Of a stretch of DNA of 42,095 bases, positions 10,983-28,216 are shown piece by piece. Position 1 is the first letter of the stretch; each line of letters starts with the position of its first letter. The notes under the pieces were generated by a model, which was not told the origin of the DNA, did not search any database, and saw only the letters and a program-made list of their open reading frames with translations. The stretch is from the IMG/VR virus record IMGVR_UViG_3300045988_011437, positions 1-42,095 of that record. One strand, written 5' to 3'. The translations under genes and the position numbers were made by a program. This stretch comes from a virus.

Positions 10983-11807
10983 ATGAGTTCAATTATCGGT
11001 AGGCCAATAATGGTAGGGGGTGCTGGCGGCTATAAAATGGCATTTGCCAGTCTGACACCACAATCCGGCGTGACTTATACAGACGGATTATCCAGCCTTA
11101 GACCAGCCGTTCTATCCCTTATGTCTGCGGCCATATCCAACAATAGAGATATTACCAGTGCGACCCTGACTGTATATGTGGATTATGGCGACATCCACCG
11201 TAAGATTGATGTGGGCGATCAGGTAACGATTGCACTGAATGGTGTCAATTACGCATTTGACGTGATTGGCTTTAACCATGATACGCTGACAACATCTACC
11301 GCGTATGGTGCTACCACCAAGACCGGCAAGGCTGGTATCACATTCCAGATGCATGACCTGTTTGCAACGACCTATGTGATGAACAGTTCTAACACAAACA
11401 GCGGCGGCTGGAAGAGTAGCGCTATGCGCACCTCGACGATGGCGACTATGAAGGGGTATCTGCCCGCAGCATGGCAGACAGCCATCAAGCCGGTCAATAA
11501 AGTTTCCGGCACTGGCGGCGGTTCTTCAAGCGGTACGGAAACAGTCTCCGACAGCTGCTTCCTGCTGGCCGAAATCGAAATCTTTGGTTCCACCACCTAT
11601 TCCGTTTCTGGAGAAGGAACGCAGTACGCATATTACAAGGCAGGCAACTCGAAGGTGAAGAACAAAGGTGGCTCCGCTAACGCCTGGTGGGAGCGTTCTC
11701 CTCGTTCTGGCAGCAGCTTTCGTTTCTGTAGTGTCAACAGCAACGGCGGCGCCGGCATTGGCGGCGCCGACGGCGGTTATGACGTCGCTTTCGGCTTCTG
11801 CGTCTAA
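10983..11807 (+). CDS. Putative receptor-binding protein (DUF6273-like C-terminal region)
   Basis: 274 aa. Motif ANAWWERSPRSGSSFRFCSVNSNG resembles the WWLRSP signature of DUF6273-type surface domains. The gene is visibly less GC-rich than its neighbours. Confidence 0.6.
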   Translation: MSSIIGRPIMVGGAGGYKMAFASLTPQSGVTYTDGLSSLRPAVLSLMSAAISNNRDITSATLTVYVDYGDIHRKIDVGDQVTIALNGVNYAFDVIGFNHDTLTTSTAYGATTKTGKAGITFQMHDLFATTYVMNSSNTNSGGWKSSAMRTSTMATMKGYLPAAWQTAIKPVNKVSGTGGGSSSGTETVSDSCFLLAEIEIFGSTTYSVSGEGTQYAYYKAGNSKVKNKGGSANAWWERSPRSGSSFRFCSVNSNGGAGIGGADGGYDVAFGFCV

Positions 11808-11904
11808 CAAAACAATTGAAAGAAAGGATGACTACACAATATCGTCCGCATGGGAGCCGGGTGCTACGGGCACGGAAAGCCTGTGGGCGGAAGTAACAGA
11901 GTAA

Positions 11905-12475: not shown

Positions 12476-12697
12476 ATGAAGCTGAACAACAAGACCTATG
12501 ACATCATCAAGTGGGTGGTTATGATCGTGCTGCCCGCCCTTAGTGCCCTGTACGTGGGACTGGGCGGCATCTGGGGCTGGCCGTACATCGAGCAGGTGGC
12601 GGGGACTATCTCCTGCATTACCGTGTTCCTTGGCGCGCTGCTGGGCATTTCCAGCGCCAGCTACAAGAAATCTACGCTGGATGAGGAGGCCATGTAA
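12476..12697 (+). CDS. Holin (two TM segments, Dp-1-type pattern)
   Basis: 73 aa. YDIIKWVVMIVLPALSALYVGLGGIWGWP plus a second TM segment ISCITVFLGALLGIS. The next gene starts immediately after the stop codon. Confidence 0.75.
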   Translation: MKLNNKTYDIIKWVVMIVLPALSALYVGLGGIWGWPYIEQVAGTISCITVFLGALLGISSASYKKSTLDEEAM

Positions 12698-13381
12698 ATG
12701 GCCGCCCCGAAAGTCTACCTGTCCCCGGCTATGCACATGGCAAACCCCTGTGTATATCCGCGCCCGGATGGGAAACAGTGCTATGAGGCACTGGAGAACA
12801 ACGAGTACATCGACATTCTGGAGCCGATCCTGAACCGCTGCGGCATTGCCACTAAGCGCGGGTACCGGCGCACCCCCATGAACGGCGACAACGGCGATGC
12901 CATCATGAAGCAGAACGTGAGGGAAAGCAACGCATGGGGCGCGGACGTGCATTACGTCAGCCACACCAACGCCATCAGCAACGGCGCGGAGCAGACACGG
13001 GTGAGCGGGTGCAACCCCATGTACTACACTTATTCCAGCAAGGGGAAGAAGTTGGGCGAGATCATGGTGAAATACCGCAAGCAGGTGTACCCCGGCAAGG
13101 TGACGCTGGTGCCAAACGCCAAGTGGTACGAGCTGCGGGTGCCGAACGCGGTGAGCTTTTACGAGGAACACGCTTTCCATGACAATCCCAACGACATCGG
13201 CTGGTGGCACGAGCACATGACAGAGGTGGCGGAGAGCGCCGCCAAGGGCCTGTGCGAGTGGTTCGGCATCCCGTATGTGGAGCCGGAGACACCGGAACAG
13301 CCGACCGTGACCGAAACGTACACCGTGAAGGTGACGCGGAGCGCGGACGGGAAAAGCGGCACGTGGGAGATCGTGAAGTGA
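12698..13381 (+). CDS. Endolysin, N-acetylmuramoyl-L-alanine amidase (Amidase_3-like)
   Basis: Motifs GADVHYVSHTNA and SFYEEHAFHDN are typical of zinc amidase_3 catalytic domains. It follows the holin. Confidence 0.85.
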   Translation: MAAPKVYLSPAMHMANPCVYPRPDGKQCYEALENNEYIDILEPILNRCGIATKRGYRRTPMNGDNGDAIMKQNVRESNAWGADVHYVSHTNAISNGAEQTRVSGCNPMYYTYSSKGKKLGEIMVKYRKQVYPGKVTLVPNAKWYELRVPNAVSFYEEHAFHDNPNDIGWWHEHMTEVAESAAKGLCEWFGIPYVEPETPEQPTVTETYTVKVTRSADGKSGTWEIVK

Positions 13382-16532: not shown

Positions 16533-19500
16533 ATGGGCTGGAAGCAGACATTTCAGAAGAAAATGAAAGCTGCGGGGATGGAAAACGACATCCCCGCAGC
16601 AAGCCGGACAAGCCGCAATGCAGACAGCGGCGGGTGGCAGGATAAGTTCCGCAGCAAAATGGAAGCTGCCGGCATGGGCGGCGATATTATCCGCACCGGC
16701 GGCAGAACGGCAGCGGATGTGGCGCCCAGCACCTATAAGCCGGACACGTCTATGCTGGTTACGCCGGGCGTGCCTGCGGGAAACGCAACAAGTGCGGCGG
16801 GGAAATATAACGTGGGCCAGGGCTTGGCAAAAGCCGGACAAATGGGCCTGACACAGATCGCCAAAGTGGGCAGCTCTGCCGGCGCATGGATAGAGAACCT
16901 GCTGGGTGATTTTGCCCGGGAGGGCTCCAACGGCTACTGGGACCCGGACACCAGCAACTGGCTTTTCAACCGCTGGAACCGGGCTATTGACGCGGAGGCG
17001 CAGGGGGTGCAGCAGCGGTACGCAGAAAACACGGCACGCGGCGGGAAAGCGGCGCAGGTTTTTGAAGACCTGGGTGCGGCGACGGTGGCGGCGGTGCCGC
17101 AAGCCATTGCGGCGCTGTTGACCGGCGGCGCCAGCACGGCGGCACAGGCAGGTGCACTGGCGGAAAACGCGGCGGCTTCCTCCGGGTTGGTCAACACCAT
17201 TTCCCGCAGTATGCGGGCAATGGTGAAAGATCCGAACTTCCAGCTCTCCTTTGCACAGGTATTTGGCCCCGGGTATGAGCAGGCAAAGGCGGACGGCGCG
17301 GACGATTTCCGCGCTTCCGTGTACGCCATCGGCAACGGACTGATGAACGCCGCCGTGGAAGTGGGCGGCGGTATCCAGACGCTGCCACGGGAATTGCAGA
17401 ACGGCGGCAGCGCATGGAAAGCATGGGTGGACACCATGCTGGACGAGGGCAAGGAGGAAGTGGTGCAGGGCGTGATCGAACGCGCCACGCAGAACGCCGT
17501 CTATGGACGGGACAACCCCCTTGTCGGTATCGGCAACGGCGCCATTTTTGACCCGGCGGCAGCGGCGGAGGAATTTGCCGGTGGCGCTGTGGTTGGCGGT
17601 ATCCTGGGCGGCGGGCAGGTGGGCGTGAACACCCTTGCCAACCGTTCGGCATACAACGCGGCCAGAGCGCAGTATGACCGGGACGTGCGGCAGAACACCG
17701 CGCCGGAGATGGACGGCAGGACGGCGGAAGCCGTGGAGGCGGTGACCCGGGGCGAGACGATCACCGGCAACCAGGCGGCAGCCATTGCACGGGACCCGGT
17801 GGCCGTGGAGACACTGGAGGCCAGCACCGGGGTAAAGCTGGACACGGAAAAGCCCATCAGCCAGCTCAAACGTGAAATTATCGCCCTTGCAAGCCGCGAG
17901 ACAGCGCAGGAGCAGACACAGCGCGCCCCGGCTATCCCCCAGACGCAGAAACGCGCACAGAAAGCCGTGGGCGGCTTTATGGAGGCGGGTCAGAGAGCGT
18001 ATCAGCAGGTGCGGGAGACAAGCGGCAGCGGCGCGGAGGTGTACGCAGGCTTTTCCGCCATGTACAACGCGGGATTGAACGGCGTTGAGGCGGAAAAGGC
18101 CAAGGGCAAGTACGCGGCGATGCTGACGCCGGAGCAGCAGTACACGGCGTACAACGCAGGGCTGGAGGACGCCAGGGCGCAGGTGGCACGGGAGAATGCG
18201 GACGTAGCATACGTGACCACCACGGCAGGAGCAGGTTTGGCGGACAATGCCTACAGCCGGTACATCATCGCCAAAGACAAGGGCGCGGCCTCGACGCTGA
18301 ACACTATCGGAAAGAAGCTGGGCGTGCGTATCGAGTTCGTGGACAGCATTATGGATGGGCAGGCCAACGGCCAGTACATCAGGGAGAAAAACCTGATCCA
18401 GATCGCGGCGGACAGCACGAACCCCATCTATGAGGTGGCGGGGCACGAGGTCACCCACCGGATGCAGGACCTATCCCCCGACGAGTACCGGGCGTTCCGG
18501 AAGGCGGCGATAGAGTACCGCATGCGGGAGAACGGCGCGGACACGGAAACGGAGGTCGTGCAGCGGTACATGGAGGCGGCAGAGAGAGCCGGCATAACGC
18601 TGACGCAGGACGAGGTGATGGACGAGATCGCCGCAGACTTTGCGGGGCGGATGATCGAGGACACGGATCTGTTCGCGCGGTTTGCCAAGGACAACCGCAC
18701 GGCGGCGCAGAAGCTGTTGGACGGGCTGAAGGAATTTATTGCCAAAGTCAAGGCTATGTTCACCGGCAAGGCAAGAGACAACGCGGCGATGGATGCCTAC
18801 GGCAAGACCTTCGGAGAGCTGGAGGACATTGCGCAGAAGTGGCAGGCGGCTTTTGACGCGGCGGAGCGGCAGGCGGAGAAAACAAAAACCGCCGCCGGTG
18901 AGGGAAGCGGTGCAAAGTATCAGATCAAGCAGTTCCCCAATGGCATGAAATACGTTCAGGCGGACAGACAAGTGTTATTTGGCAACGACCCCAAGGCGTG
19001 GAGTGAACAGCTGGAAAACTATATCAACGGCAAAATCCGCAATCACGAGGATGTTCGCCTGATTGCCGAGGACGGCGATGTTCTGCTCCTGACAAGTAAA
19101 TCTGCCGGGAAGCTGAGTAGCATTTACGACAACAATGGTCGAACGATGGATGAAAAAGCATTTGAACGTAAAGCAAATGCGGCTGCTCACATCGACGAAC
19201 TCATTAAAGTTTCTGAGCGCGGAGGAAAGACTGTCCTTGACTTTGGCGGGCGTCACGGTGACATGGCAAAAGACGGCTGGAACTATCGAACGGCGTATTT
19301 CATGGATTTTGATGGAAAGTATTATCGAACGCGCATTTCCGTTGCGCTGGGTAAGGATGGGAGCATTGTCTACAATATCGGGGAAATGCAAGAAAGAAGC
19401 ACTCCCCAAATTAACGGCTCTTCCGGAAACTCCGGCGCTCAGCGGGGGAATGCTTCTGCTAATAGTATACCCACCGAGGGCGGAAATGTCAAGCCGAAGT

Positions 19501-22500
19501 TTTCGCTGAAGGCTTACTCGGAGGCGGAGAAAAAAGATCATGTAAAATCCGCAAAGGAATTTTTCGGCAAGACGTACAGCTGGAACGAGACCGGGTACAT
19601 CACCACGGACGGCACAAAGCTGGACTTTTCCGGCAGGCATGATGGCGGTCCCGGCGGCTACCGCACTGTGGACCACCGTGACATCCGCGATGCGCTGGGG
19701 CTTGACTACGGCGGCGAAGATTACAGCGGCGCAATGGTGCAGTTTATGAGCGAGGGCAATATCCGCATCAGCCCGGAAAGCGGCGGCATCAATCTGTCGG
19801 TCATGCCCACAAAGGCGCAGCTGGACACGCTGGCTGACTTTATCAGTAAAAACCGCGGCGAGGTGATACTGGATCTGGACGACACCAACGGAAACACCGT
19901 GTCCAGCACGGAATATCCGAAGGGAACGCACAGCAGCAAGGTCATCAACGACATAAGGGCGTACTTTGAGAACGGAACGGTGCCGCAGGCATCTGAGCTG
20001 AGCCAGTTCCGGTATCAGCTGCGGAGTACGGCGGACATTGAACAGGAGGTGCGGGACCTGAAACGGGAGCGCACGGTACTGTCCAGCCGCAACCGCGCAT
20101 TGGAACAGCGGGTGCAGGAGCTGAAGGGCGAAATGCGTATCAGTAAGGAGCCGTCCGTAGTGCTGCGGGACGTGAAAAAACTGGGGCGCGAGACCATACG
20201 CAAGTACGGCAGCGACGTGAAATACGGAGACATTCAGGCCGACATGGAGGCGCTGGGCAAGGCTGTGATGAAGAAAGACGTGAGCATGGCCGACCTGATG
20301 CCCTACGCCAGAAACGCGGCGACGGCCATCGTGGACAACACGACGGAGCTGACGGAGCACGGCGCGGAGCTGCTGGAGATCAAAGACTACCTGAAGCGGC
20401 AGAAGATCCTTTTCAACGGGGAGATGGACCACTACAACGAGTTCCGCAAGCGGTACATGGGAACGCTGAAGCTGAACAAGTCGGAGGGCTTGCCGGTGGA
20501 CACCATGTACGAGGAAATGACGGAGATGTTCGGCGAGGGCTATTTCCCCAGCGACGTGTATACCGAGGCGGACAAGCTGCAGCAGATCGCGGATGTGCTG
20601 GACAGCATGGACAGCATTTATGAAAACCCCTTTGACAGCTACCGTGACGCAGCCATTCAGGAGATCGCCAACGACATCATTGACGGCATGATCTCTGACC
20701 AGGTGCGGCAGAAGAAGACCTTTGCCGACCGGCGGGAGCTGGAGAAGCAGGAGGCCGTGGGACGGGTGCGTGAAATGCTGACAAAGGAGCGGGAAAAGCG
20801 CCGGGACATGGTGAAGCGGATGCGCCGGGAGTACAGCGAGAAGACCCAGAAGGGCCGGGAGAAGCGGTACGCCGCGGAGATGCGTGCAAAGATCGCCAGA
20901 CACACGGGGCCTTTGTCCGAAAAGCTGCTGCGACCCACGGACAAAAAGCACATTCCGGAGGAGCTGCGCGTGGTGGTGGCCGATCTGCTGCGGAACATCA
21001 ACCTGGAGAGCGCATACAGCTACGACGAGAACGGACGGCTGCGGAAAAACGCCGGCGGCGACCCGACCCGACGGACGCAGGAGGCCGTAAAGCTGAAAAA
21101 GGCATACGAGGACATCATTGCCCGTGAGGCGAACATGGTGGTGGACCCCGATTTGCTTGACAGCGGCGGTCTGCTGGACAGCCTGGCGGCGCTGGGCGGA
21201 AAGCGTATCGCCGACATGAACGTGACGGAGCTGGAGACCGTATGGAATGCGGTGCGGGCCATCGAGGCCACGCTGACCAGCTACGACCGGACGCTGGCGA
21301 ACCAGAAGTACGCACGGACCAGCGAGTGGGCGGACAGCCTTATGATGGGCAGTATGAGCCGGAAGCGGCGGAACCGGAAGATCTCACTGGATATGGCGGA
21401 CCCGTATACGTTCTTCTCCGCCTACGGCGACGGCGGCATGCAGGTATACCGGACGCTGCGGAACGCGCAGGACCGGGAGCATGTGATGCTGACGGAGCTG
21501 CGGGACGCGGCTAAAAAGTTCCTGGATGCGGACGTGTACAAAAACCGCTTTGAACGGCACACGTTCACCACAAGCCGGGGCGTGGAGCTGACGCTGACCA
21601 ACGAGCAGATCATGAACCTGTACAACCTGGCAAAGCGCGGTGAGCAGGCCATGAACCACCTGATGGTGGGCGGCATCGTGCAGCCGGAGATCGAGCGGGA
21701 CGGCAAGCTGAAAGCCATCCCCCGCGGGACGGAGAACATCCTGCTGACGCTGGAGGACGTCAGGGCCATCACCTCCGTGCTGACACCGGAGCAGATCAAG
21801 GTGGCGGACGGATTGCAGAAGCTGGCCAGCACGAAGCTGGCGGAGTGGGGCAACGAGGCCAGCATGGCGGTGTACGGCTACCGCAAGTTCATGGAAACGC
21901 ATTACTGGCCCATCAAGACGGCGAAGGAGGCCACGGCATCCAGCGTGGAGAAGGGACCGGACATCGCCAGAGAGATCAAGAATATGGGCAGCGCAAAGGC
22001 CCTGACGCCAAACGCCAGCAACGCGCTGGACATCGGCGGCGTGTATGACGTGTTCGCGCAGAACGCCAGCGACATGATCAAGTACGCCACGCTGCTGGCC
22101 CCGATGGAGGACATCAACCGGCTGTACAACTACCGGTACCGGGACAGCATGGGCAACCTGACCGGGAAGAACGTGCGGCAGGTGCTGTCCGGCGTGTACG
22201 GCGACGCGGCGCAAAGCTACTGGCGAAACCTGATGCGGGATGTGCAGAACGGCATGGTGAAGAACGCCAGCGCCACCACAAGGGCCGTGGAGCGCATCGT
22301 GGGCAACACAAAAGGCGCCGCGGTGGGGGCGAACCTGCGCGTGGTCATCCAGCAGCCCACGGCGTACTTCCGGGCGGCGGTGGTGCTGGACCCGGAGAAC
22401 ATGGCGAAGGGCCTGGGCAACGGCGTGACCAAAGGCAACGGATGGGACAAGGCACGAAAGTGGGCGCCCATTGCGGGCATCAAGGACACGTCCGGCTTTG

Positions 22501-23642
22501 ACCAGGGCAGCCGGTACACCATCGCACGGGAGGTATACGGCACGGACGGCGGCTTTATGGAGTGGCTGAGCGACAAGAGTATGTCACTGGCCGGGAAAGC
22601 CGATGCGATGACGTGGGGCAAGATCTGGAACGCCTGCGAGTGGCAGGTGGCGGCGGACACGAACCTGGAGGTTGGCAGCGATGCCTACTATCAGCAGGTG
22701 GCGGAGGTGTTTACGGACGTGATCGACCAGACGCAGGTGGTGGACGGCATCATGCAGCGGACGCAGATCATGCGGGACAGCGACGCGCTGACGCGGCAGG
22801 CCACGTCTTTTATGGGTGAGCCGCTGAAAAGCCTGAATATCCTGATGCGGTCCTACGATGCATGGGTGTATGAAACGAACCCGCAGAAGCGCAGCAAGGC
22901 GCTGAAGCAGCTAAAGCGGGCCGTGGGCGCTTTGCTGGTGACGGACGTGGTGAACGCATTGGCACAGTCCATCGTGGACGGCCTGCGGGACGACGACAAG
23001 GATAAGAAGTACTGGGAGCGCGTTCTGGAAGCCTTTACCGGCATTACAGGGGAGGAAAAGAACTTTAGCGAGGCTGTCAAGAACATCACGCTGCAGGGCA
23101 ATGTGAAGGGCAACATCACGCTGGTAGGCCGTATCCCCTACGCCAAAGACATTATCTCCATTCTGCAGGGCTACACCGTAGACCGCATGGATGCCGGAGC
23201 GGTGGACGACATCGTAAGGGCCACCAAGTCCATGATCTCCAGCGCCAACGGACAGGGCAAAAAAACGGCGGCGTACAACGTCAAGCAGTTCCTGACCGTG
23301 GTCAGCAAAATCTTTGGCGTCAGCGTGGCGAACCTGGGACGGGATACCTGGGCCATTGCCAGAAGTATTGCCAGCGAGACCGGAAATGTGCGGCTGATGT
23401 TCGAGATGGAAAAGGCCATCTACCGCATGGACAAGAGCGCCGGGAACCGGAAAACGTGGTGCGAGCTGCTGTACCGGGCGCAGAAAGAAAGGGACACCGA
23501 AACGGCGCGTCTGATCTACAGGGAGATGCTGGCGCACGGCTATGAGGAGGCGGACGTGCGGCAGGGCGTGGAGGCCATTATGAAGCAGGAGCAGGGCGTA
23601 AACTCTGTGAAAGAACTGAGAAACCGGTGGATGGCACCGTAA
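16533..23642 (+). CDS. Giant 2369-aa virion-associated multidomain protein with HExxH zincin motif (polyvalent / ejected-protein candidate)
   Basis: Uninterrupted 7.1-kb ORF with a GGAGGG RBS. HEVTH lies at 18444..18458 in the context PIYEVAGHEVTHRMQD. A lower-GC segment at about 19000..19560 encodes a compact basic domain. Long coiled-coil stretches are present. No tape-measure gene occurs elsewhere in the genome. Confidence 0.8.
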   Translation: MGWKQTFQKKMKAAGMENDIPAASRTSRNADSGGWQDKFRSKMEAAGMGGDIIRTGGRTAADVAPSTYKPDTSMLVTPGVPAGNATSAAGKYNVGQGLAKAGQMGLTQIAKVGSSAGAWIENLLGDFAREGSNGYWDPDTSNWLFNRWNRAIDAEAQGVQQRYAENTARGGKAAQVFEDLGAATVAAVPQAIAALLTGGASTAAQAGALAENAAASSGLVNTISRSMRAMVKDPNFQLSFAQVFGPGYEQAKADGADDFRASVYAIGNGLMNAAVEVGGGIQTLPRELQNGGSAWKAWVDTMLDEGKEEVVQGVIERATQNAVYGRDNPLVGIGNGAIFDPAAAAEEFAGGAVVGGILGGGQVGVNTLANRSAYNAARAQYDRDVRQNTAPEMDGRTAEAVEAVTRGETITGNQAAAIARDPVAVETLEASTGVKLDTEKPISQLKREIIALASRETAQEQTQRAPAIPQTQKRAQKAVGGFMEAGQRAYQQVRETSGSGAEVYAGFSAMYNAGLNGVEAEKAKGKYAAMLTPEQQYTAYNAGLEDARAQVARENADVAYVTTTAGAGLADNAYSRYIIAKDKGAASTLNTIGKKLGVRIEFVDSIMDGQANGQYIREKNLIQIAADSTNPIYEVAGHEVTHRMQDLSPDEYRAFRKAAIEYRMRENGADTETEVVQRYMEAAERAGITLTQDEVMDEIAADFAGRMIEDTDLFARFAKDNRTAAQKLLDGLKEFIAKVKAMFTGKARDNAAMDAYGKTFGELEDIAQKWQAAFDAAERQAEKTKTAAGEGSGAKYQIKQFPNGMKYVQADRQVLFGNDPKAWSEQLENYINGKIRNHEDVRLIAEDGDVLLLTSKSAGKLSSIYDNNGRTMDEKAFERKANAAAHIDELIKVSERGGKTVLDFGGRHGDMAKDGWNYRTAYFMDFDGKYYRTRISVALGKDGSIVYNIGEMQERSTPQINGSSGNSGAQRGNASANSIPTEGGNVKPKFSLKAYSEAEKKDHVKSAKEFFGKTYSWNETGYITTDGTKLDFSGRHDGGPGGYRTVDHRDIRDALGLDYGGEDYSGAMVQFMSEGNIRISPESGGINLSVMPTKAQLDTLADFISKNRGEVILDLDDTNGNTVSSTEYPKGTHSSKVINDIRAYFENGTVPQASELSQFRYQLRSTADIEQEVRDLKRERTVLSSRNRALEQRVQELKGEMRISKEPSVVLRDVKKLGRETIRKYGSDVKYGDIQADMEALGKAVMKKDVSMADLMPYARNAATAIVDNTTELTEHGAELLEIKDYLKRQKILFNGEMDHYNEFRKRYMGTLKLNKSEGLPVDTMYEEMTEMFGEGYFPSDVYTEADKLQQIADVLDSMDSIYENPFDSYRDAAIQEIANDIIDGMISDQVRQKKTFADRRELEKQEAVGRVREMLTKEREKRRDMVKRMRREYSEKTQKGREKRYAAEMRAKIARHTGPLSEKLLRPTDKKHIPEELRVVVADLLRNINLESAYSYDENGRLRKNAGGDPTRRTQEAVKLKKAYEDIIAREANMVVDPDLLDSGGLLDSLAALGGKRIADMNVTELETVWNAVRAIEATLTSYDRTLANQKYARTSEWADSLMMGSMSRKRRNRKISLDMADPYTFFSAYGDGGMQVYRTLRNAQDREHVMLTELRDAAKKFLDADVYKNRFERHTFTTSRGVELTLTNEQIMNLYNLAKRGEQAMNHLMVGGIVQPEIERDGKLKAIPRGTENILLTLEDVRAITSVLTPEQIKVADGLQKLASTKLAEWGNEASMAVYGYRKFMETHYWPIKTAKEATASSVEKGPDIAREIKNMGSAKALTPNASNALDIGGVYDVFAQNASDMIKYATLLAPMEDINRLYNYRYRDSMGNLTGKNVRQVLSGVYGDAAQSYWRNLMRDVQNGMVKNASATTRAVERIVGNTKGAAVGANLRVVIQQPTAYFRAAVVLDPENMAKGLGNGVTKGNGWDKARKWAPIAGIKDTSGFDQGSRYTIAREVYGTDGGFMEWLSDKSMSLAGKADAMTWGKIWNACEWQVAADTNLEVGSDAYYQQVAEVFTDVIDQTQVVDGIMQRTQIMRDSDALTRQATSFMGEPLKSLNILMRSYDAWVYETNPQKRSKALKQLKRAVGALLVTDVVNALAQSIVDGLRDDDKDKKYWERVLEAFTGITGEEKNFSEAVKNITLQGNVKGNITLVGRIPYAKDIISILQGYTVDRMDAGAVDDIVRATKSMISSANGQGKKTAAYNVKQFLTVVSKIFGVSVANLGRDTWAIARSIASETGNVRLMFEMEKAIYRMDKSAGNRKTWCELLYRAQKERDTETARLIYREMLAHGYEEADVRQGVEAIMKQEQGVNSVKELRNRWMAP

Positions 23643-23729
23643 AACAAAGAAAGGAGCAACGGGCGATAGGCGCAACCATCCTATGGCACCATCCCGCCGC
23701 AAGGCGGTCCGCAGGCCTGCGTAAGCAGG

Positions 23730-23981
23730 ATGAACCAGCAGCACAGGGAAATCCGCGCCATGCTGAAGGGCATGGCACCCAAAAGGGCTATCGCATGGAT
23801 CCAATCTTTTGAGTTACCACAAGAGGAAGCCCAGTGTATCGCGGAGTGCGATGTGCGGCGTCGCAGCTGCGTGGAGCAGGCATTTTGCATGAACGTGTCT
23901 GTGGACGTGGTAAAACGATGCCGGCGAAGGGCATACCGGAAAATTGCAGACGGGCTGAACGCAGAAAAAAGCCACACCTGA
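23730..23981 (+). CDS. Small sigma-70 region-4-like HTH protein (candidate late-gene regulator)
   Basis: 83 aa. LPQEEAQCIAECDVRRRSCVEQAFCMNVSVDVVKRCRRRAYRKIADGL fits the region-4 HTH pattern (L..e...i.......s..eiA..l.vS..tVk....rA..Kl). Confidence 0.55.
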   Translation: MNQQHREIRAMLKGMAPKRAIAWIQSFELPQEEAQCIAECDVRRRSCVEQAFCMNVSVDVVKRCRRRAYRKIADGLNAEKSHT

Positions 23982-23997
23982 AAAGGTGTGGCTTTTT
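23966..23997 (+). terminator. Strong intrinsic terminator ending the late operon
   Basis: AAAAAGCCACACC TGAAAA GGTGTGGCTTTTT. The stop codon of the preceding gene sits in the loop. Confidence 0.85.
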
Positions 23998-24099
23998 ATT
24001 TGCCGCCGAAAGGGGGACGGCGGCGTGTGTTGGGGGGGATAGCCTGATTATACGGCGAAATAAGTAAAAACGCAATAGAGACGCGCTGATTTTTAACGC

Positions 24100-24132
24100 G
24101 CACTTATCAGCCACTTTATCGCCACTTTGAAA
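24100..24132 (+). repeat. Three helically phased CACTT(T) direct repeats upstream of the cargo block
   Basis: gCACTTATCAG CCACTTTATCG CCACTTTGAAA, with 11-bp spacing. CCACTT is also the half-site of the palindrome in the duplicated late cassette. Confidence 0.4.
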
Positions 24133-24175
24133 TGGGCATATCCCTGTATGCTTACAGTAAAGAGAGGTGGTCGTG

Positions 24176-24559
24176 ATGTTTGTGCGCTATAACCCAAACC
24201 CGGCGGGTAAAAACGTGGGGGATTGCCCGGTTAGGGCCATCTGCAAGGCCACGGGGCAGGGATGGCATGAGACGTATGTGCAGCTGTGTATGCAGGGGCT
24301 GGCTTTGGCGGATATGCCCAGTGCCAACAATGTATGGGGCGCGTATCTGAAAAAACTGGGATTTAGGCGGCATATTATCCCGGAGGATTACCCGGACAGC
24401 TATTCCGTGGGTGACTTCGCAAGGGAACACCCGCGTGGTACATATCTTCTGGCGCTGGCGTCCCACGTGGTGTGCGTGATAGACGGAGACTGGCATGACA
24501 CGTGGGACTCCGGGGCCGAAACACCTTTGTACTTTTGGGAAAGGACGGATGAGGAATGA
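24176..24559 (+). CDS. Hypothetical protein with Cys...His...Asp pattern (possible papain-like fold)
   Basis: ATG 24176 follows GAGAGGTGG. YNPNPAGKNVGDCPVRAI ... ASHVVCVIDGDWHDTWDSG. The ordered conserved-looking C, H and D residues are the only functional hint. Confidence 0.55.
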   Translation: MFVRYNPNPAGKNVGDCPVRAICKATGQGWHETYVQLCMQGLALADMPSANNVWGAYLKKLGFRRHIIPEDYPDSYSVGDFAREHPRGTYLLALASHVVCVIDGDWHDTWDSGAETPLYFWERTDEE

Positions 24560-24978
24560 ACTATCCCTATTACGGAAACCCCTATATGCCGCCGATGCCG
24601 GACAACCTCGGCCAGCTCAGGCAGCAGCAGATGATGCCCCAGCAGATGCCGCAGATGCAGAACCCTATACCGCAGAGCGGCGTGCAGTGGGTATCGGGCG
24701 AACAGGAAGCCAGGAGCTGGATGGTGGCACCCAACGCGGCGGTGGCCCTTTGGGACAGCACGGCGCCCACGGTGTACCTGAAGCAGGCCGATGCCAGCGG
24801 CAAGCCGACGCTGAAGGTATACGACCTTGTGGAGCGGCTTGCAAACGCGCCTGAAGCAAAAAAGGACCCAGGGGCGGAATATGTGACCCGGGCGGAGCTG
24901 GACAAGCTGGCGGCCATTGTGGCCGAAATGAAGGCCAAGAAGAAGCGCAAGGTGGAGGAGGAAGAGGACGATGAGTAA
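24556..24978 (+). CDS. Hypothetical protein, P/Q/M-rich N-terminus, acidic/basic tail
   Basis: ATGA overlap with the previous gene. 140 aa. Confidence 0.55.
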   Translation: MNYPYYGNPYMPPMPDNLGQLRQQQMMPQQMPQMQNPIPQSGVQWVSGEQEARSWMVAPNAAVALWDSTAPTVYLKQADASGKPTLKVYDLVERLANAPEAKKDPGAEYVTRAELDKLAAIVAEMKAKKKRKVEEEEDDE

Positions 24979-25180
24979 TCCGTTTTATCAAGCGATGGGC
25001 GGGAACGTGAACCCGCTGGGGAATTTTGGACAGCTGGTGCAGAAGTTCCAGCAGTTCAAAACGAGCTTTCAGGGCGACCCGAAAGCAGAGGTAGAGAAGA
25101 TGCTGCAGAGCGGCGCACTGACGCAGGAGCAGCTGAACCGGGCACAGGCGATGGCGCGGCAATTCCAAAACCTTTTGTGA
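24971..25180 (+). CDS. Small Q-rich helical protein
   Basis: 8-nt overlap with the previous gene. 69 aa. Confidence 0.5.
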   Translation: MSNPFYQAMGGNVNPLGNFGQLVQKFQQFKTSFQGDPKAEVEKMLQSGALTQEQLNRAQAMARQFQNLL

Positions 25181-25237
25181 TCAATATCGTGGCCACGATT
25201 TGATGAAATACATCTTTATCCGAAAGGAGTGACGACA

Positions 25238-25918
25238 ATGGCAATTACTGACGGCGGTCCCACCATGACAATGCCTGTGGCCCCTACCGGCATGATGGGC
25301 GGCGGCTTCGGCGGCGAAAACGGATGGTGGGTCATCCTGTTTATCATCCTGCTGTTCGGCTGGGGTCGTAACGGCTACGGCAACAACAACGGCGGTGTGG
25401 TGGACGGTTATGTGCTGACCTCCGATTTCGCCAGCGTTGAGCGCAAGCTGGACGCGGTGAATAACGGCATCTGCGACTCCACGTTTGCCCTGAACAACGC
25501 TATCAATGGAGGCTTTGCTACGGCAGAGCTGTCCCGCGCAAACCAGCAGGCGGCGCTGATGCAGCAGCTCAACGCCATGCAGATGCAGTCTCAGGAGTGC
25601 TGCTGCGAGAACCGGGCGGCTATCGCCCAGGTGCGGTACGACATGGCGACGCAGGCCTGCGACACACGCAACACCGTGCAGACGGCGGCCCGGGACATCG
25701 TGGAGAACGCGAACGCCAATTCCCGTGCGATTTTGGACTTCCTGACGCAGAGCAAGCTGCAGGATCTTCAGAGCGCCAATCAGGAGCTGCGCCTGCAGGC
25801 TTCTCAGGCTGCGCAGAACAACTACCTGATTTCCCAGCTGCGCCCCACGCCCATTCCCAGTTACCCGTCCTGCAACCCGTGGGCAAGCGGCAGTTATACC
25901 GGCTGCTGCGGCTGCTGA
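25238..25918 (+). CDS. Membrane protein with Gly-rich N-terminus, one TM segment, Q/N-rich coiled region and Cys clusters (CCC, C-terminal CCGC)
   Basis: AAAGGAG RBS lies 8 nt before ATG 25238; the ORF track starts at GTG 25229. TM segment WWVILFIILLFGW. Confidence 0.55.
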   Translation: MAITDGGPTMTMPVAPTGMMGGGFGGENGWWVILFIILLFGWGRNGYGNNNGGVVDGYVLTSDFASVERKLDAVNNGICDSTFALNNAINGGFATAELSRANQQAALMQQLNAMQMQSQECCCENRAAIAQVRYDMATQACDTRNTVQTAARDIVENANANSRAILDFLTQSKLQDLQSANQELRLQASQAAQNNYLISQLRPTPIPSYPSCNPWASGSYTGCCGC

Positions 25919-25985
25919 CAACTGCATAGCACCAGCTGTTCGGAATTTCCGAACTGTTCAGCCCCATGCTGATACTGACACCAAC

Positions 25986-26017
25986 GCGGCGGGGCAATAG
26001 CTCCGCCGCTGTATTTT
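25986..26017 (+). terminator. Internal hairpin plus T-rich tail inside the cargo block (attenuator?)
   Basis: GCGGCGGGG CAATAG CTCCGCCGC (one G-T pair), then TGTATTTT. Confidence 0.4.
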
Positions 26018-26033
26018 GAAAGGAGTGATTATT

Positions 26034-26456
26034 TTGGCCGAGTTTACCAACGCCAATATCGTGACTGTGGCCGCAGGGCAGAATGTGCCTCTGACGGAAA
26101 CCGCGGTCAACAGCAAACCGTGCATCGTACACCGTGAGGGTGCCGGGGTGGTGACGCTGCGTGGACTGACGAACCAGTGCAGAGCACTGTACAAAGTCAC
26201 TTACGGCGGCAACATCGCCATTCCCACCGGCGGCGCCGTGGGAGCCATCACCGCTGCGCTGGCCGTCAATGGCGAGGCGCTGACCAGCGCCACAGCGACG
26301 GTGACGCCAGCTGCCGTGGAAAACTATTTCAATATCTATGTTTCCGCACAGGTGTGCGTGCCGAAGGGCTGCTGCCTGACGGTCGCCATGAAGAACACCA
26401 GTACGCAGGCGGTCAGCTTTGCCAACAGCAATCTGACCGTTGAGAGAATTGCGTGA
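26034..26456 (+). CDS. BclA-C-terminal-domain-like / C1q-TNF-like jelly-roll protein (putative)
   Basis: TTG 26034 lies 8 nt after AGGAG. The beta-rich pattern (...VTLRG...ALYKVTYGGNIA...LAVNGEAL...NSNLTVERIA) parallels the BclA C-terminal domain layout, which ends ...ASIIIEKVA. By recollection only. Confidence 0.45.
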   Translation: MAEFTNANIVTVAAGQNVPLTETAVNSKPCIVHREGAGVVTLRGLTNQCRALYKVTYGGNIAIPTGGAVGAITAALAVNGEALTSATATVTPAAVENYFNIYVSAQVCVPKGCCLTVAMKNTSTQAVSFANSNLTVERIA

Positions 26457-26469
26457 GAGGAGGGACGAC

Positions 26470-26889
26470 ATGAACATGAAGGAACTTTTCGGCATCCGCG
26501 AGATGCTGTGTGACGAGCTTTCCGAGTATGCCGGCAAGCAGGAGATGGGCACCGGGGAGCTGGACGTGATCCACAAGTTAACGGCCTCTATCAAGAACAT
26601 TGATAAGATCGCCATGTTTGAGAGCGGCGGGTACAGCCGTGACGACGGGTATTCCCGCGAGGATGGGTATTCCCGCGGCGGCGACTGGGATGCAAGCATC
26701 CGGGGTACGTATGGGCGCGGCAGCTCGTACCGGCGCAAGAGAGACTCTATGGGCCGGTATAGCCGCGATGACGGGTATTCACGCGATGGGCATGCCAAAG
26801 ATGTGATCGAGCGCATGATGCAGGATACCGATGATCCCAACGTGAAAGAGGCACTGCGGCAGTGCATGCACGTGGTGGAGAAGGGCTGA
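26470..26889 (+). CDS. Hypothetical protein with GYSR(D/E)D repeats between helical ends
   Basis: ATG 26470 lies 6 nt after GGAGGG. It contains GGYSRDDGYSREDGYSRGG ... GRYSRDDGYSRDG. Confidence 0.55.
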   Translation: MNMKELFGIREMLCDELSEYAGKQEMGTGELDVIHKLTASIKNIDKIAMFESGGYSRDDGYSREDGYSRGGDWDASIRGTYGRGSSYRRKRDSMGRYSRDDGYSRDGHAKDVIERMMQDTDDPNVKEALRQCMHVVEKG

Positions 26890-26938
26890 CGTTGCTAACA
26901 CGTAGCTAACAAAGCGGAAAACGGGCAAAAACAAAAAA

Positions 26939-26968
26939 CCTCGGAACCCTTGTGGTTCCGAGGTTTTT
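26939..26968. terminator. Bidirectional intrinsic terminator (A-run / 10-bp stem / T-run)
   Basis: AAAAAA CCTCGGAACC CTTGT GGTTCCGAGG TTTTT. Confidence 0.8.
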
Positions 26969-26969
26969 C

Positions 26970-27014
26970 TGGTGCGCGGTACAGGACTCGAACCTGTGAC
27001 CCCATGCACGTCAA
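26970..27014 (-). other. attP core: 3' portion of a tRNA gene (anticodon loop to CCA)
   Basis: The reverse complement reads TTGACGT GCATG GGGTC ACAGG TTCGAGT CCTGT ACCGCGC A CCA. This gives a canonical T-arm, acceptor 3' strand and CCA, with a loop compatible with anticodon GAC (Val). No D-arm or 5' acceptor strand is present. It lies about 100 bp from the integrase gene. Confidence 0.75.
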
Positions 27015-27112
27015 TTATGGTGCACAAATATTTGCAACTATTTATGAGGTCTTAGGCGAATTTTTGCGGTTGTTTTACATGAAACTGTGACGTAAATCCT
27101 CGTGAAGCTTTT

Positions 27113-28216
27113 TCAGGTCTTTTCGGTTACTGACAAATTACTAACACTCTCCACTGCTGATATGAGTTTTTCGGTGTCGGCGTGGACGTAGATGTTGGCG
27201 GTGGTAGAGAAGTCGGCGTGGCCGAGTATCTTTTGCAGCACGTCCGGCTGGATGCCGGCGTTACGCGCCCAGGTGGCGTAGGTATGACGGGTGGCGTGGG
27301 GCGTGTGCTTTGGGATGCCGAGCTTTTCCAGCAGAGGGTAAAAGTCACGTTTGCGGTAATTGGCGGGGATGCGCTGCCCGTCGTAGCCGGACAAGAGCAG
27401 ATCGCCGTCGGCACGACCGGCAAAGTAGGCAAAATACTTTCTGCCCTCCGGGCGGATGGGGATGACGCGGTTTTTTCCGGCTTCCGTCTTTTCGCCACCG
27501 ATCACATACGTCTCGTGGTAGTCTGCAAGCGGCAAGGAAAACAATTCTCCGATACGCATACCGGTGTAGATCAGCATGAGGGCGATTTTGGCGGCGTCGG
27601 AGCCGTCTTTTTCCAATAGCGCGATCTCGTCATCTGTAAAGATGGCTTTTTCTTTTTTTACCTGCTGGGGCAGCTTGACGTATTTGGCAAAGTCAGTGGT
27701 GGCGATCTCTTCCCGGACAGCCCAGCGGGACATCTGCGTCATAAGCTGCTTGTATTTGGACAGGGTGGAGTTGGACTTTGCCATGTTGCTGTCGATGATC
27801 GCCTGAAAATCCTTTGTGCGAAGGTCGCGGAATTTCCGGGGATACAGACTGGTGCAGACCTTATAGGCCTGGTTGTAGGACTCTATTCCCTGCGGACCTA
27901 TTTCACGGAAGTGTTCTGCTTTCCATTCCGCAAACACCTCAGAGAACGTCATGTTGAATTTTTCTTCGATTGGTTTGCCGGAGAGCTTTTCCAGCGCGGC
28001 CAGTGCGTCGGTCTTGCGTTCGTAGTAGCCGATGATCACATGATTTTTGGCGGCAGCCCAGGGGCGTGTACGGCGACCTGAGAGCTTGTAAACCGTGCCG
28101 GCACCGTTGGGGCGCTTCAGGGCTTTGCGGGTTTCTTTGACCTGCTTTTTGCCGCAGATATGACAGTAAACGGCGCCGGGGACAAGCTCGACGCCGCATT
28201 TTATACAGGTGGACAT
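27113..28216 (-). CDS. int: Tyrosine integrase with N-terminal zinc ribbon
   Basis: 367 aa. N-terminus CIKCGVELVPGAVYCHICG. Catalytic region is TGMRIGEL ... HATRHTYATWARNAG ... LGHADFSTTANIYVH. Confidence 0.9.
   Translation of the reverse strand: MSTCIKCGVELVPGAVYCHICGKKQVKETRKALKRPNGAGTVYKLSGRRTRPWAAAKNHVIIGYYERKTDALAALEKLSGKPIEEKFNMTFSEVFAEWKAEHFREIGPQGIESYNQAYKVCTSLYPRKFRDLRTKDFQAIIDSNMAKSNSTLSKYKQLMTQMSRWAVREEIATTDFAKYVKLPQQVKKEKAIFTDDEIALLEKDGSDAAKIALMLIYTGMRIGELFSLPLADYHETYVIGGEKTEAGKNRVIPIRPEGRKYFAYFAGRADGDLLLSGYDGQRIPANYRKRDFYPLLEKLGIPKHTPHATRHTYATWARNAGIQPDVLQKILGHADFSTTANIYVHADTEKLISAVESVSNLSVTEKT

Follow-up and report, generated by a model that had tools for sequence, protein, structure and literature searches.

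The DNA analyzed here (the window) is the 42,095-nucleotide (nt) IMG/VR virus record IMGVR_UViG_3300045988_011437, a complete temperate phage of 42 kb with a GC content of ~57%. Between the end of its late operon and its phage attachment site (attP) lies a block of six genes, g1 to g6 (24176–26889), all on one strand, which a first-pass annotation made from the letters alone had singled out as a terminator-bounded accessory locus. The open reading frames (ORFs) are present as first noted, and ORFs, start codons and homologues agree that the six genes are real. Start codons were refined by ribosome-binding sites and database homologues; a longer g4 ORF that begins with GTG at 25229 was rejected because the homologues do not start there. 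The number of database relatives (7089 for g5, counted at E ≤1e-3 and falling into 567 clusters at 50% identity; at least 7973 for g4) places these ORFs far beyond chance. The functional unit extends past the first terminator to an upstream regulator gene, sig, which, like the activator-type promoter in front of g1, is absent from the first-pass annotation. Together, sig and g1–g6 very probably form one conserved, sig-regulated module (the cassette), which is horizontally mobile and lies at the far end of the late operon of numerous tailed phages that infect gut Clostridia.

A scan of IMG/VR with g4 returned at least 558 relatives, and in the 80 loci that were kept the order sig-g1-g2-g3-g4-g5-g6 holds essentially without exception: g3 is co-linear in all loci, g6 in nearly all, and sig precedes the cassette in most. 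When the search is seeded with sig, 63 of the 64 loci with enough downstream sequence bear cassette genes, so the conserved co-occurrence that the first-pass annotation had named as a check is found. The same gene order surrounds a g5 relative of 36% identity. The cassette is co-linear in uncultured human-gut phages and in Oscillospiraceae/Clostridiales metagenome-assembled genomes, and its order is kept in Dulem virus 33, a siphovirus from the lemur gut that encodes a tape-measure protein, as well as in the two cultured carriers that follow. The cultured Butyrivibrio phage Ceridwen, a siphovirus without integrase that was observed in lytic growth only (PMC7372960), has every cassette gene, with an HNH endonuclease inserted before g6, and retains XRE and antirepressor genes. 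In the prophage of the cultured human-gut bacterium Vescimonas fastidiosa MM35 (L110, NZ_AP023416 ~250000–254600), the cassette follows holin and amidase genes; g2–g6 are annotated there together with an additional gene, g7, all as 'hypothetical protein'. The hosts are Oscillospiraceae and Lachnospiraceae.

The genes around the cassette change from phage to phage. The portal, major capsid protein, terminase and giant protein of the window are absent from the first sixteen related loci compared, and the ORF directly 5´ of sig encodes an endolysin belonging to at least five catalytic families (57 non-redundant loci) and, in 14 loci as in the window, a giant protein. Since the module moves as a unit across different particles and endolysins, it must confer a general benefit. 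Its median identity to the window is 77% for g5, 71% for g2, 70% for g4, 61% for g3, 60% for g1 and 47% for g6; g5 is the best conserved, only moderately so relative to g2 and g4, and an 'extreme' conservation of g5 was rejected. The identities are mosaic, with one locus having a g5 of 95% but a g4 of 51%. A recent foreign import of the cassette is ruled out by its GC content of ~57–59%, the same as in the rest of the phage.

Three small genes absent from the window accompany the cassette in its relatives: g0 (~40 amino acids, LxxxGFTxxMAxDI), which overlaps the g1 start in most lineages; g4.5, found in many relatives; and g7 (~110–120 amino acids, motif GDSDF...DELM...), which follows g6 in L006 (10821–11189), L017 (21711–22037) and 47 other distinct sequences. 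None of the three gave a match in Pfam or PHROG. Genes for HNH-type homing endonucleases also lie inside the cassette (L001 20861–21412, L017 20518–21312, L020 3044–3667, L087 7124–7789), at insertion points that differ by phage (g3/g4, g4/g5 or g5/g6), which suggests that the cassette is a frequent target of mobile endonucleases. Literature searches on DUF7841, phage-encoded BclA/exosporium genes, Clostridium perfringens phage virion proteomics and Vescimonas sporulation gave no result relevant to the cassette. The module as a whole has no described counterpart; what is known are the folds of its parts (papain-like, TNF-like and sigma region 4) and the niche that it fills, from the lysis genes to att, as a home of accessory genes.

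Table 1. Positions of the cassette genes, their control elements and the adjoining attachment region in the window.
Feature	Position	Strand	Remarks
sig	23730..23981	+	83 amino acids; sigma-70 region 4 (helix-turn-helix) only
Intrinsic terminator ending the late operon	23966..23997	+	sig stop codon inside the loop; second hairpin at 24002–24024
Three direct repeats, 11-bp spacing	24100..24128	+	GCACTTA 24100–24106, CCACTTT 24111–24117, CCACTTT 24122–24128; predicted sig operator
-10-like hexamer TATGCT	24147..24152	+	TG in front; 18 nt past the last repeat; read from the sequence, transcription start inferred
g1 ribosome-binding site, GAGAGGTGG	24162..24170	+	
g1	24176..24559	+	127 amino acids
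g2	24556..24978	+	140 amino acids; start overlaps the g1 stop by 4 nt
g3	24971..25180	+	69 amino acids; 8-nt overlap with g2
g4	25238..25918	+	226 amino acids; ATG start after GAAAGGAG
Three-hairpin spacer	25919..26017	+	99 nt; H1 25936–25956, H2 25958–25972, terminator-like H3 25986–26009, T-run to 26017
g5	26034..26456	+	140 amino acids; TTG start after GAAAGGAG
g6	26470..26889	+	139 amino acids; ATG start
Bidirectional terminator	26933..26968	both	16-bp stem between T-runs; closes the cassette and the convergent integrase gene; found by terminator scan
attP core	26970..27014	-	3´ 45 nt of tRNA-Val(gac)
Tyrosine integrase	27113..28216	-	Pfam Phage_integrase 7e-20; PHROG 1 5e-51; context, outside the module

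The regulator that heads the module is reduced to a single sigma-factor region. The window sig matches Pfam Sigma70_r4 weakly (E 0.023) and the PHROG family 3512, 'sigma factor', at 9e-5; three of its relatives match Sigma70_r4_2 (1.3e-9) and Sigma70_r4 (8.7e-6), and the alignment displays the region 4 pattern LPxxE...S...VxRxRRRAYxKIA. Pfam matches to region 2 or 3 were not found in the sig family (73–98 amino acids), and since region 2 is missing, sig is classed as a region-4-like DNA-binding regulator rather than as a sigma factor. sig is the last cistron of the late operon; a scan of the window detects no terminator-like site between the giant gene and sig, and the Ceridwen copy of sig overlaps a small gene in front of it, the product of which contains a hydrophobic stretch. 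The terminator that the first-pass annotation placed at the end of the late operon is real: with the second hairpin after sig it reaches -44.2 kcal/mol (z = -6.9), a terminator stands at the same place in the other lineages inspected, and it is annotated there in Ceridwen. An ~85-nt leader upstream of sig is conserved (23643–23729 in the window, same position in L003–L107), and in the lineages inspected a YGCAAGYC motif stands 15–20 nt ahead of the ATG. The window sig ATG has no clear adjacent ribosome-binding site, and a 12-codon mini-ORF (MAPSRRKAVRRPA) ends 7 nt upstream of it.

Beyond the terminator, three direct repeats precede g1, and the promoter-proximal one occupies the usual -35 position. 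In 1000 shuffles, the repeat score of the window (17/21) was attained five times, and the pair of repeats is found nowhere else in the window genome. Most other lineages have a triple repeat at the same place with a spacing of 10–12 bp (mostly 11 bp), and a TATnaT-like element keeps its position in the other lineages inspected. The repeat sequence varies by lineage (CACTTT, TGACCA, GGGCAG, GCAGAAT, GACCTTT) and tracks the recognition helix or helix-turn-helix of sig. From these sequences we infer that activation of the cassette is the dedicated task of sig, whose proximal site would stand in for the -35 box. A role as general late activator is ruled out because the operator occurs only upstream of g1. 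Like the MotA/AsiA system of T4 middle promoters and the late activators of the RinA, ArpU and Alt types, the proposed sig would be a small phage DNA-binding protein that acts on a defined gene set through sites replacing the -35 element; unlike them, it consists of region 4 only, is encoded at the end of the late operon instead of before the terminase genes, and has its operator just once in the window genome. In the scheme that we propose, sig would be made as the final product of the late (lysis) operon, bind the repeats and switch the cassette on. With sig produced last in the late operon and read-through stopped by the terminator, cassette expression would fall in the final stage of the lytic cycle. 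Judged by this arrangement, late-lytic rather than lysogenic expression is an evenly balanced call.

The hairpin that the first-pass annotation saw dividing the block between g4 and g5 is real and conserved, as a comparison of 29 distinct spacer sequences reveals. H1 keeps its stem with wholly different sequences (alternative complementary stems), H2 carries a G-C to A-U swap in 10 of the 29, and the H3 stem is paired in all 29, with changes only from G-C to G-U at three positions, while the proteins flanking the spacer fall to ~50% identity. The g5 ribosome-binding site starts at 26018, one base past the T-run, which indicates that g5 and g6 are made by read-through. The element may be an attenuator, an antitermination target, a recombination joint, or an attenuator and a joint both; in the proposed scheme, it would meter read-through into g5–g6. 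An Rfam search of 23600–27200 gave no credible family for the intergenic elements.

The third hairpin of the first-pass annotation, the bidirectional terminator next to attP, is likewise real, and the placement of the block at the prophage end holds. The 131 nt at 26884–27014 are identical to the right junction of an integrated prophage (L024), in which ARAGORN places tRNA-Val at 11733–11808, and matches of >90% to the attP region are found in many gut phage contigs. In integrated prophages, g6 is the final phage gene, followed by tRNA-Val and then by host genes; the host flank (Oscillospiraceae) bears yabP/divIC-type sporulation-locus genes. The cassette thus has the autonomous promoter and terminators at the prophage end that mark a lysogenic-conversion moron. 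In line with the accessory-cargo view of the first-pass annotation, the cassette could be lysogenic-conversion cargo. Transcribed in the prophage state, possibly by the sporulating mother cell, it would decorate the surface of the host cell or spore with an exosporium-like layer of the g5 knob, the Cys-rich g4 and a CotG-like g6. The location by attR, the promoter and terminators of its own and the yabP/divIC-type genes of the host flank fit this proposal, as does the lack of a visible signal peptide in g1, g2, g3, g5 and g6 (sequences read directly), since mother-cell coat proteins also lack one. Phage-encoded factors are reported to alter sporulation in Bacillus anthracis.

The proposal is weakened by the carriers of the cassette and by its promoter. 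The full cassette is found in the integrase-less, lytically growing Ceridwen, whose host Butyrivibrio fibrisolvens is described as non-sporulating; the g4 family extends to crAss-like phages of non-sporulating Bacteroidota; and the promoter apparently depends on a regulator encoded by the last cistron of the late operon. Pfam and NCBIfam disclose no sequence similarity to coat or exosporium families. We therefore regard lysogenic-conversion cargo as unlikely, and because of Ceridwen and the crAss-like g4 homologues a spore-specific role is not supported.

Regarding the proteins themselves, the first-pass annotation had recognized no structural, lysis or replication function, which agrees with Pfam, NCBIfam and PHROG. 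None of g1–g6 has a significant Pfam, NCBIfam or PADLOC match, and when the six proteins are searched together with 49 diverse homologues, Sigma70_r4 for sig is the sole exception. PDB sequence and profile searches with g1, g2, g4, g5 and g6 gave no match. g1–g5 match PHROG families strongly, each labeled as unknown function, and g6 does so weakly.

Structure prediction is most informative for g5. Its AlphaFold2 (AF2) model (pLDDT 97) is an all-beta jelly roll, and Foldseek against the PDB finds the F-BclA C-terminal domain (9h38; E 1e-6, TM-score 0.72), followed by BclA (1wck/3tyj), ExsFA (7r1m) and BxpB (8d02) with E values to 2e-5 and TM-scores of 0.68–0.74. The BclA C-terminal (C1q/TNF-like) layout read from the letters is thereby upheld as a fold, and these best matches speak for the lysogenic-conversion proposal. 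Lower fold matches include EDA, 4-1BBL and C1q, and also phage spike and fibre knobs. No match to g5 was obtained with the Pfam BclA C-terminal and C1q models, with Pfam and NCBIfam at E up to 1, or among PDB sequences; the PHROG match is to family 20016 (4e-54). In BFVD the closest structures are stand-alone proteins of 130–145 amino acids from sipho-, podo- and myo-type gut phages (TM-score 0.8–0.9). Among the 567 clusters, the best 150 consist of short proteins that stand alone (72–196 amino acids, ~140 when full-length), so that even the longest of these has no room for a collagen-like stalk. g5 itself has neither an N-terminal targeting region nor such a stalk, and its model opens with the first beta strand. 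g5 thus has a fold in common with BclA, F-BclA, ExsFA and BxpB of the Bacillus cereus-group exosporium, and ExsFA and BxpB, like g5, are stand-alone domains of ~140–170 amino acids without signal peptide. It differs from BclA/ExsF in sequence (10–14% identity, no Pfam match), in being phage-encoded, in one case by a phage whose host is described as non-sporulating, and in its place within a fixed module of seven genes, to which nothing in exosporium loci corresponds.

Knobs of the TNF/C1q type also occur on the phi812 central spike, on the short fibre of A-1(L) and on Klebsiella phage fibres, which suggests a second explanation, that of an accessory of the virion. Particles of any morphotype could then be fitted with g5 as a detachable knob for binding a receptor or glycan and with g4 as a stalk or an ejected membrane-inserting protein; g2 and g3 would be chaperones and g1 a maturation protease. 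The cassette lies on the late strand after the virion genes, the g4 homologue of the crAss-like phage cr53_1 sits among structural and lysis genes, and the hydrophobic segment of g4 could be covered by g2 and g3, which are rich in Met and Gln. The same cassette, however, accompanies unrelated sipho-type and podo-like virion modules, and the BFVD relatives of g5 come from all three tail types; it is a separate transcription unit past a terminator with its own regulator; it has no homology to morphogenesis families in PHROG or Pfam; and g5, at a median identity of 77%, is its best conserved protein, unlike receptor-binding tips. A virion accessory is therefore quite unlikely. A narrower reading of g5 as a tail-fibre tip was demoted to a low-confidence rival since the cassette is independent of virion type.

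For g1, the papain-like assignment of the first-pass annotation stands in part. All homologues in sets of 41 and of 50 have residues C17, H97 and D108, which follow the papain order, and in the AF2 model (pLDDT 95) the Cys opens a helix while His and Asp mark the beginning and the end of successive strands. The fold matches are papain-like but weak: the top three in Foldseek are Josephin-2 (probability 0.96, E 0.04), AvrPphB and staphopain, with E values of 0.04–0.6 and TM-scores of 0.37–0.46. g1, which falls into PHROG 3754, is thus a predicted papain-fold cysteine peptidase or isopeptidase. It shares the Cys...His...Asp order with the clan CA peptidases (Josephin domain, AvrPphB, staphopain) and differs from them in its much smaller size (127 amino acids), its weak fold match and the lack of a Pfam or MEROPS-type family. 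Outside the cassette, the g1 family occurs alone in early regions, by an ocr-like gene in Tsamsa-like Bacillus phages, before RecE/RecT in Geobacillus GBK2, and in Lak megaphages.

These matches and neighbors bear on a host-takeover, counter-defence or superinfection-exclusion island, in which g1 would cleave a host protein or a ubiquitin-like conjugate and g4 with its partners would block an incoming phage or an abortive-infection response. The deubiquitinase Josephin-2 and the effector protease AvrPphB as first fold matches point this way, as do the lone early homologues beside the ocr-like anti-restriction gene and before RecE/RecT, and the UBA-like LxxxGF(T)xxxAxDI motif that we read in g0 of many lineages. 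The defence role that had been suggested from the letters has no support; PADLOC gives no match at E <0.01 for any of the seven proteins. Such genes are normally early, whereas the module follows the lysis genes; exclusion genes are normally single and near the repressor; and the seven-gene co-linearity with translational coupling suggests one machine. We consider such an island very unlikely.

The compositional features first noted are all present in the remaining proteins: the P/Q/M and Q richness of g2 and g3, the Gly, CCC and CCGC of g4 with its hydrophobic segment, and the GYSR(D/E)D repeats of g6. g4 comprises a short acidic N-tail, a Gly-flanked hydrophobic segment (WWVILFIILLFGW), whose peak is the strongest of the six proteins (Kyte-Doolittle 2.05; 1.88 for g1), a long region that is probably helical or coiled-coil as read from the sequence, and a Cys/Gly tail. 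The CCC and a C-terminal C-G-x-C are invariant in the alignment, and a SQxAQ...RPxPxPxY stretch is conserved (PHROG 16490, 3e-34). g2, which is coupled translationally to g1 as g3 is to g2, consists of a P/Q/M-rich N-terminus, a central conserved domain of ~55 residues that looks beta-rich, a probable amphipathic helix and a charged tail (PHROG 21718, 4e-30; no Pfam or PDB match). g3 is Q/N/M-rich and probably helical (PHROG 22984, 5e-21). In g6, probably helical N- and C-segments surround an R/Y/S/D/G-rich low-complexity region (GYSRDD repeats, RRDSMGRYSR), and the sole match is weak (PHROG 28802; none in Pfam or PDB). g2, g3 and g6 are largely of low complexity with short conserved segments.

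The g4 family reaches the phages of Clostridium perfringens and the crAss-like phages. In the former, g2 (present in CPD1 and 17DYC), a g3-sized ORF, an HNH gene, g4 and a different small beta protein lie downstream of the lysis genes. CPD1 shares g4 and g2 with the cassette and cr53_1 only g4, and a profile of g5 is unrelated to the small beta-rich proteins that follow g4 in these two phages. In cr53_1, the g4 homologue lies beside a holin gene, a LysB-like gene and a DUF7841 protein. The latter, gp67 (L022 4015–4650), has an R/G/Y/D-rich tail and directly precedes the g4 homologue; the tail resembles the repeat region of g6, and the two may be functional analogues.

This neighborhood, and the position of the module directly after the endolysin gene in most lineages, would also suit a lysis accessory, with g4 as a membrane-disrupting or fusion-type protein (spanin- or holin-partner-like) and the others tuning or completing envelope breakdown. 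The N-terminal membrane segment, probably helical region and conserved Cys of g4 recall i-spanins, and its cr53_1 homologue comes after the holin and LysB-like genes. Clostridia hosts, however, are monoderm and need no spanin, and no lipobox-bearing ORF is visible in the sequences in or beside the cassette. In the window, the module lies 10 kb away from the holin and amidase genes (12476–13381), with virion genes in between, and a TNF-like knob, a peptidase and three low-complexity proteins are unprecedented in lysis cassettes. This makes a lysis accessory highly improbable.

The explanation that we favor, tentatively and with slightly more doubt than confidence, is that of a self-contained mobile module at the late end of the genome, regulated by sig, that makes a fibril or coat on the membrane. 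The products would be cytoplasmic or membrane-anchored and would build one assembly, in which g4 would serve as a helical, Cys-rich stalk anchored in the membrane, g5 as a trimeric knob of the BclA/ExsF type, the low-complexity g2, g3 and g6 as assembly or chaperone proteins, and g1 as a papain-fold peptidase that processes or cross-links a component. The outcome would be a phage-made fibril or coat on the membrane, produced at or just before lysis and deployed at or after it. What favors one assembly is that the genes are strictly co-inherited and translationally coupled, that all parts would lie in the cytoplasm or membrane, and that TNF-like knobs serve as fibril tips; taken by itself, this part is doubtful. 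Several points weigh against the explanation. The g1 relatives act alone, which means that the cassette may combine separate activities instead of forming one structure, and physical contact between any two of the six proteins is hypothetical. The membrane topology of g4 is ambiguous because few charges flank its hydrophobic segment, and TNF-like knobs are also common at phage tail-fibre tips in Foldseek and BFVD. A promoter of sig's own in the ~85-nt leader could permit expression in the lysogen, and the interval from endolysin to attR is the classical site of lysogenic conversion in Firmicutes prophages.

A related and rather improbable reading is a new class of phage function, a very late regulon, turned on by its sigma-region-4-like activator once the lysis genes have been expressed, that builds an exosporium-like, Cys-rich fibrillar coat on membranes, lysis debris or released particles, with g4 as the anchored stalk, g5 as the knob, the low-complexity proteins as a matrix and the papain-fold g1 as maturase. 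If true, such a coat could protect or aggregate the progeny or serve adhesion in the gut; in concept, it would stand nearer to baculoviruses and their very late occlusion programme than to the known systems of tailed phages.

In its layout, the cassette resembles known accessory genes. Shiga toxin (Stx) genes in lambdoid phages and the immune-evasion cluster, Panton-Valentine leukocidin (PVL) and streptococcal toxin genes in Firmicutes prophages fill the same slot between the last late or lysis gene and attR, and like them the cassette has its own terminators and is plausibly coupled to late transcription and release by lysis. Where Stx/PVL-type loci have one or two effectors, the cassette unites seven to nine genes that are inherited together and have a proposed activator of their own; it is also carried by an integrase-less phage and encodes no toxin-like or secreted-effector-like product. 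The module is among the most widespread conserved unannotated blocks in temperate phages of human-gut Oscillospiraceae, and lemur and rumen phages have it as well. Its regulatory design of activator, triple operator, terminator and attenuator-like element is testable, and g5 is a structurally confident BclA/ExsF-type knob outside any spore context. With two culturable carriers, Ceridwen on B. fibrisolvens DSM 3071 and the V. fastidiosa MM35 prophage, the function is directly approachable, and a gap in the biology of gut phages would be filled whether the answer is a surface or coat structure made late, an accessory used by virions of every type, or a novel device for exclusion or counter-defence.

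The remainder of the window follows a temperate phage plan. The plus strand encodes, in order, the small terminase, an HNH endonuclease, the large terminase, the portal, the major head protein and fibre-like proteins, then a holin (12476–12697), an amidase (12698–13381), internal virion proteins and the giant protein of 2369 amino acids (16533–23642), while the minus strand encodes the tyrosine integrase and a CI-like repressor. Neither a tape-measure protein nor a sheath was found among the window genes, and the virion module looks podovirus-like. PHROG terminase profiles match the large terminase ORF (1434–2744) just from position ~190–300 on, and the HNH endonuclease gene (762–1289) lies directly before it; an intron or homing element may interrupt the large terminase, or the gene may be split. 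Relatives of the giant protein (2439–2734 amino acids) bear ART-PolyVal, LPD3 and PBECR5 domains, the markers of polyvalent proteins, and its length and domain content differ even among the near-identical prophages L024–L027.

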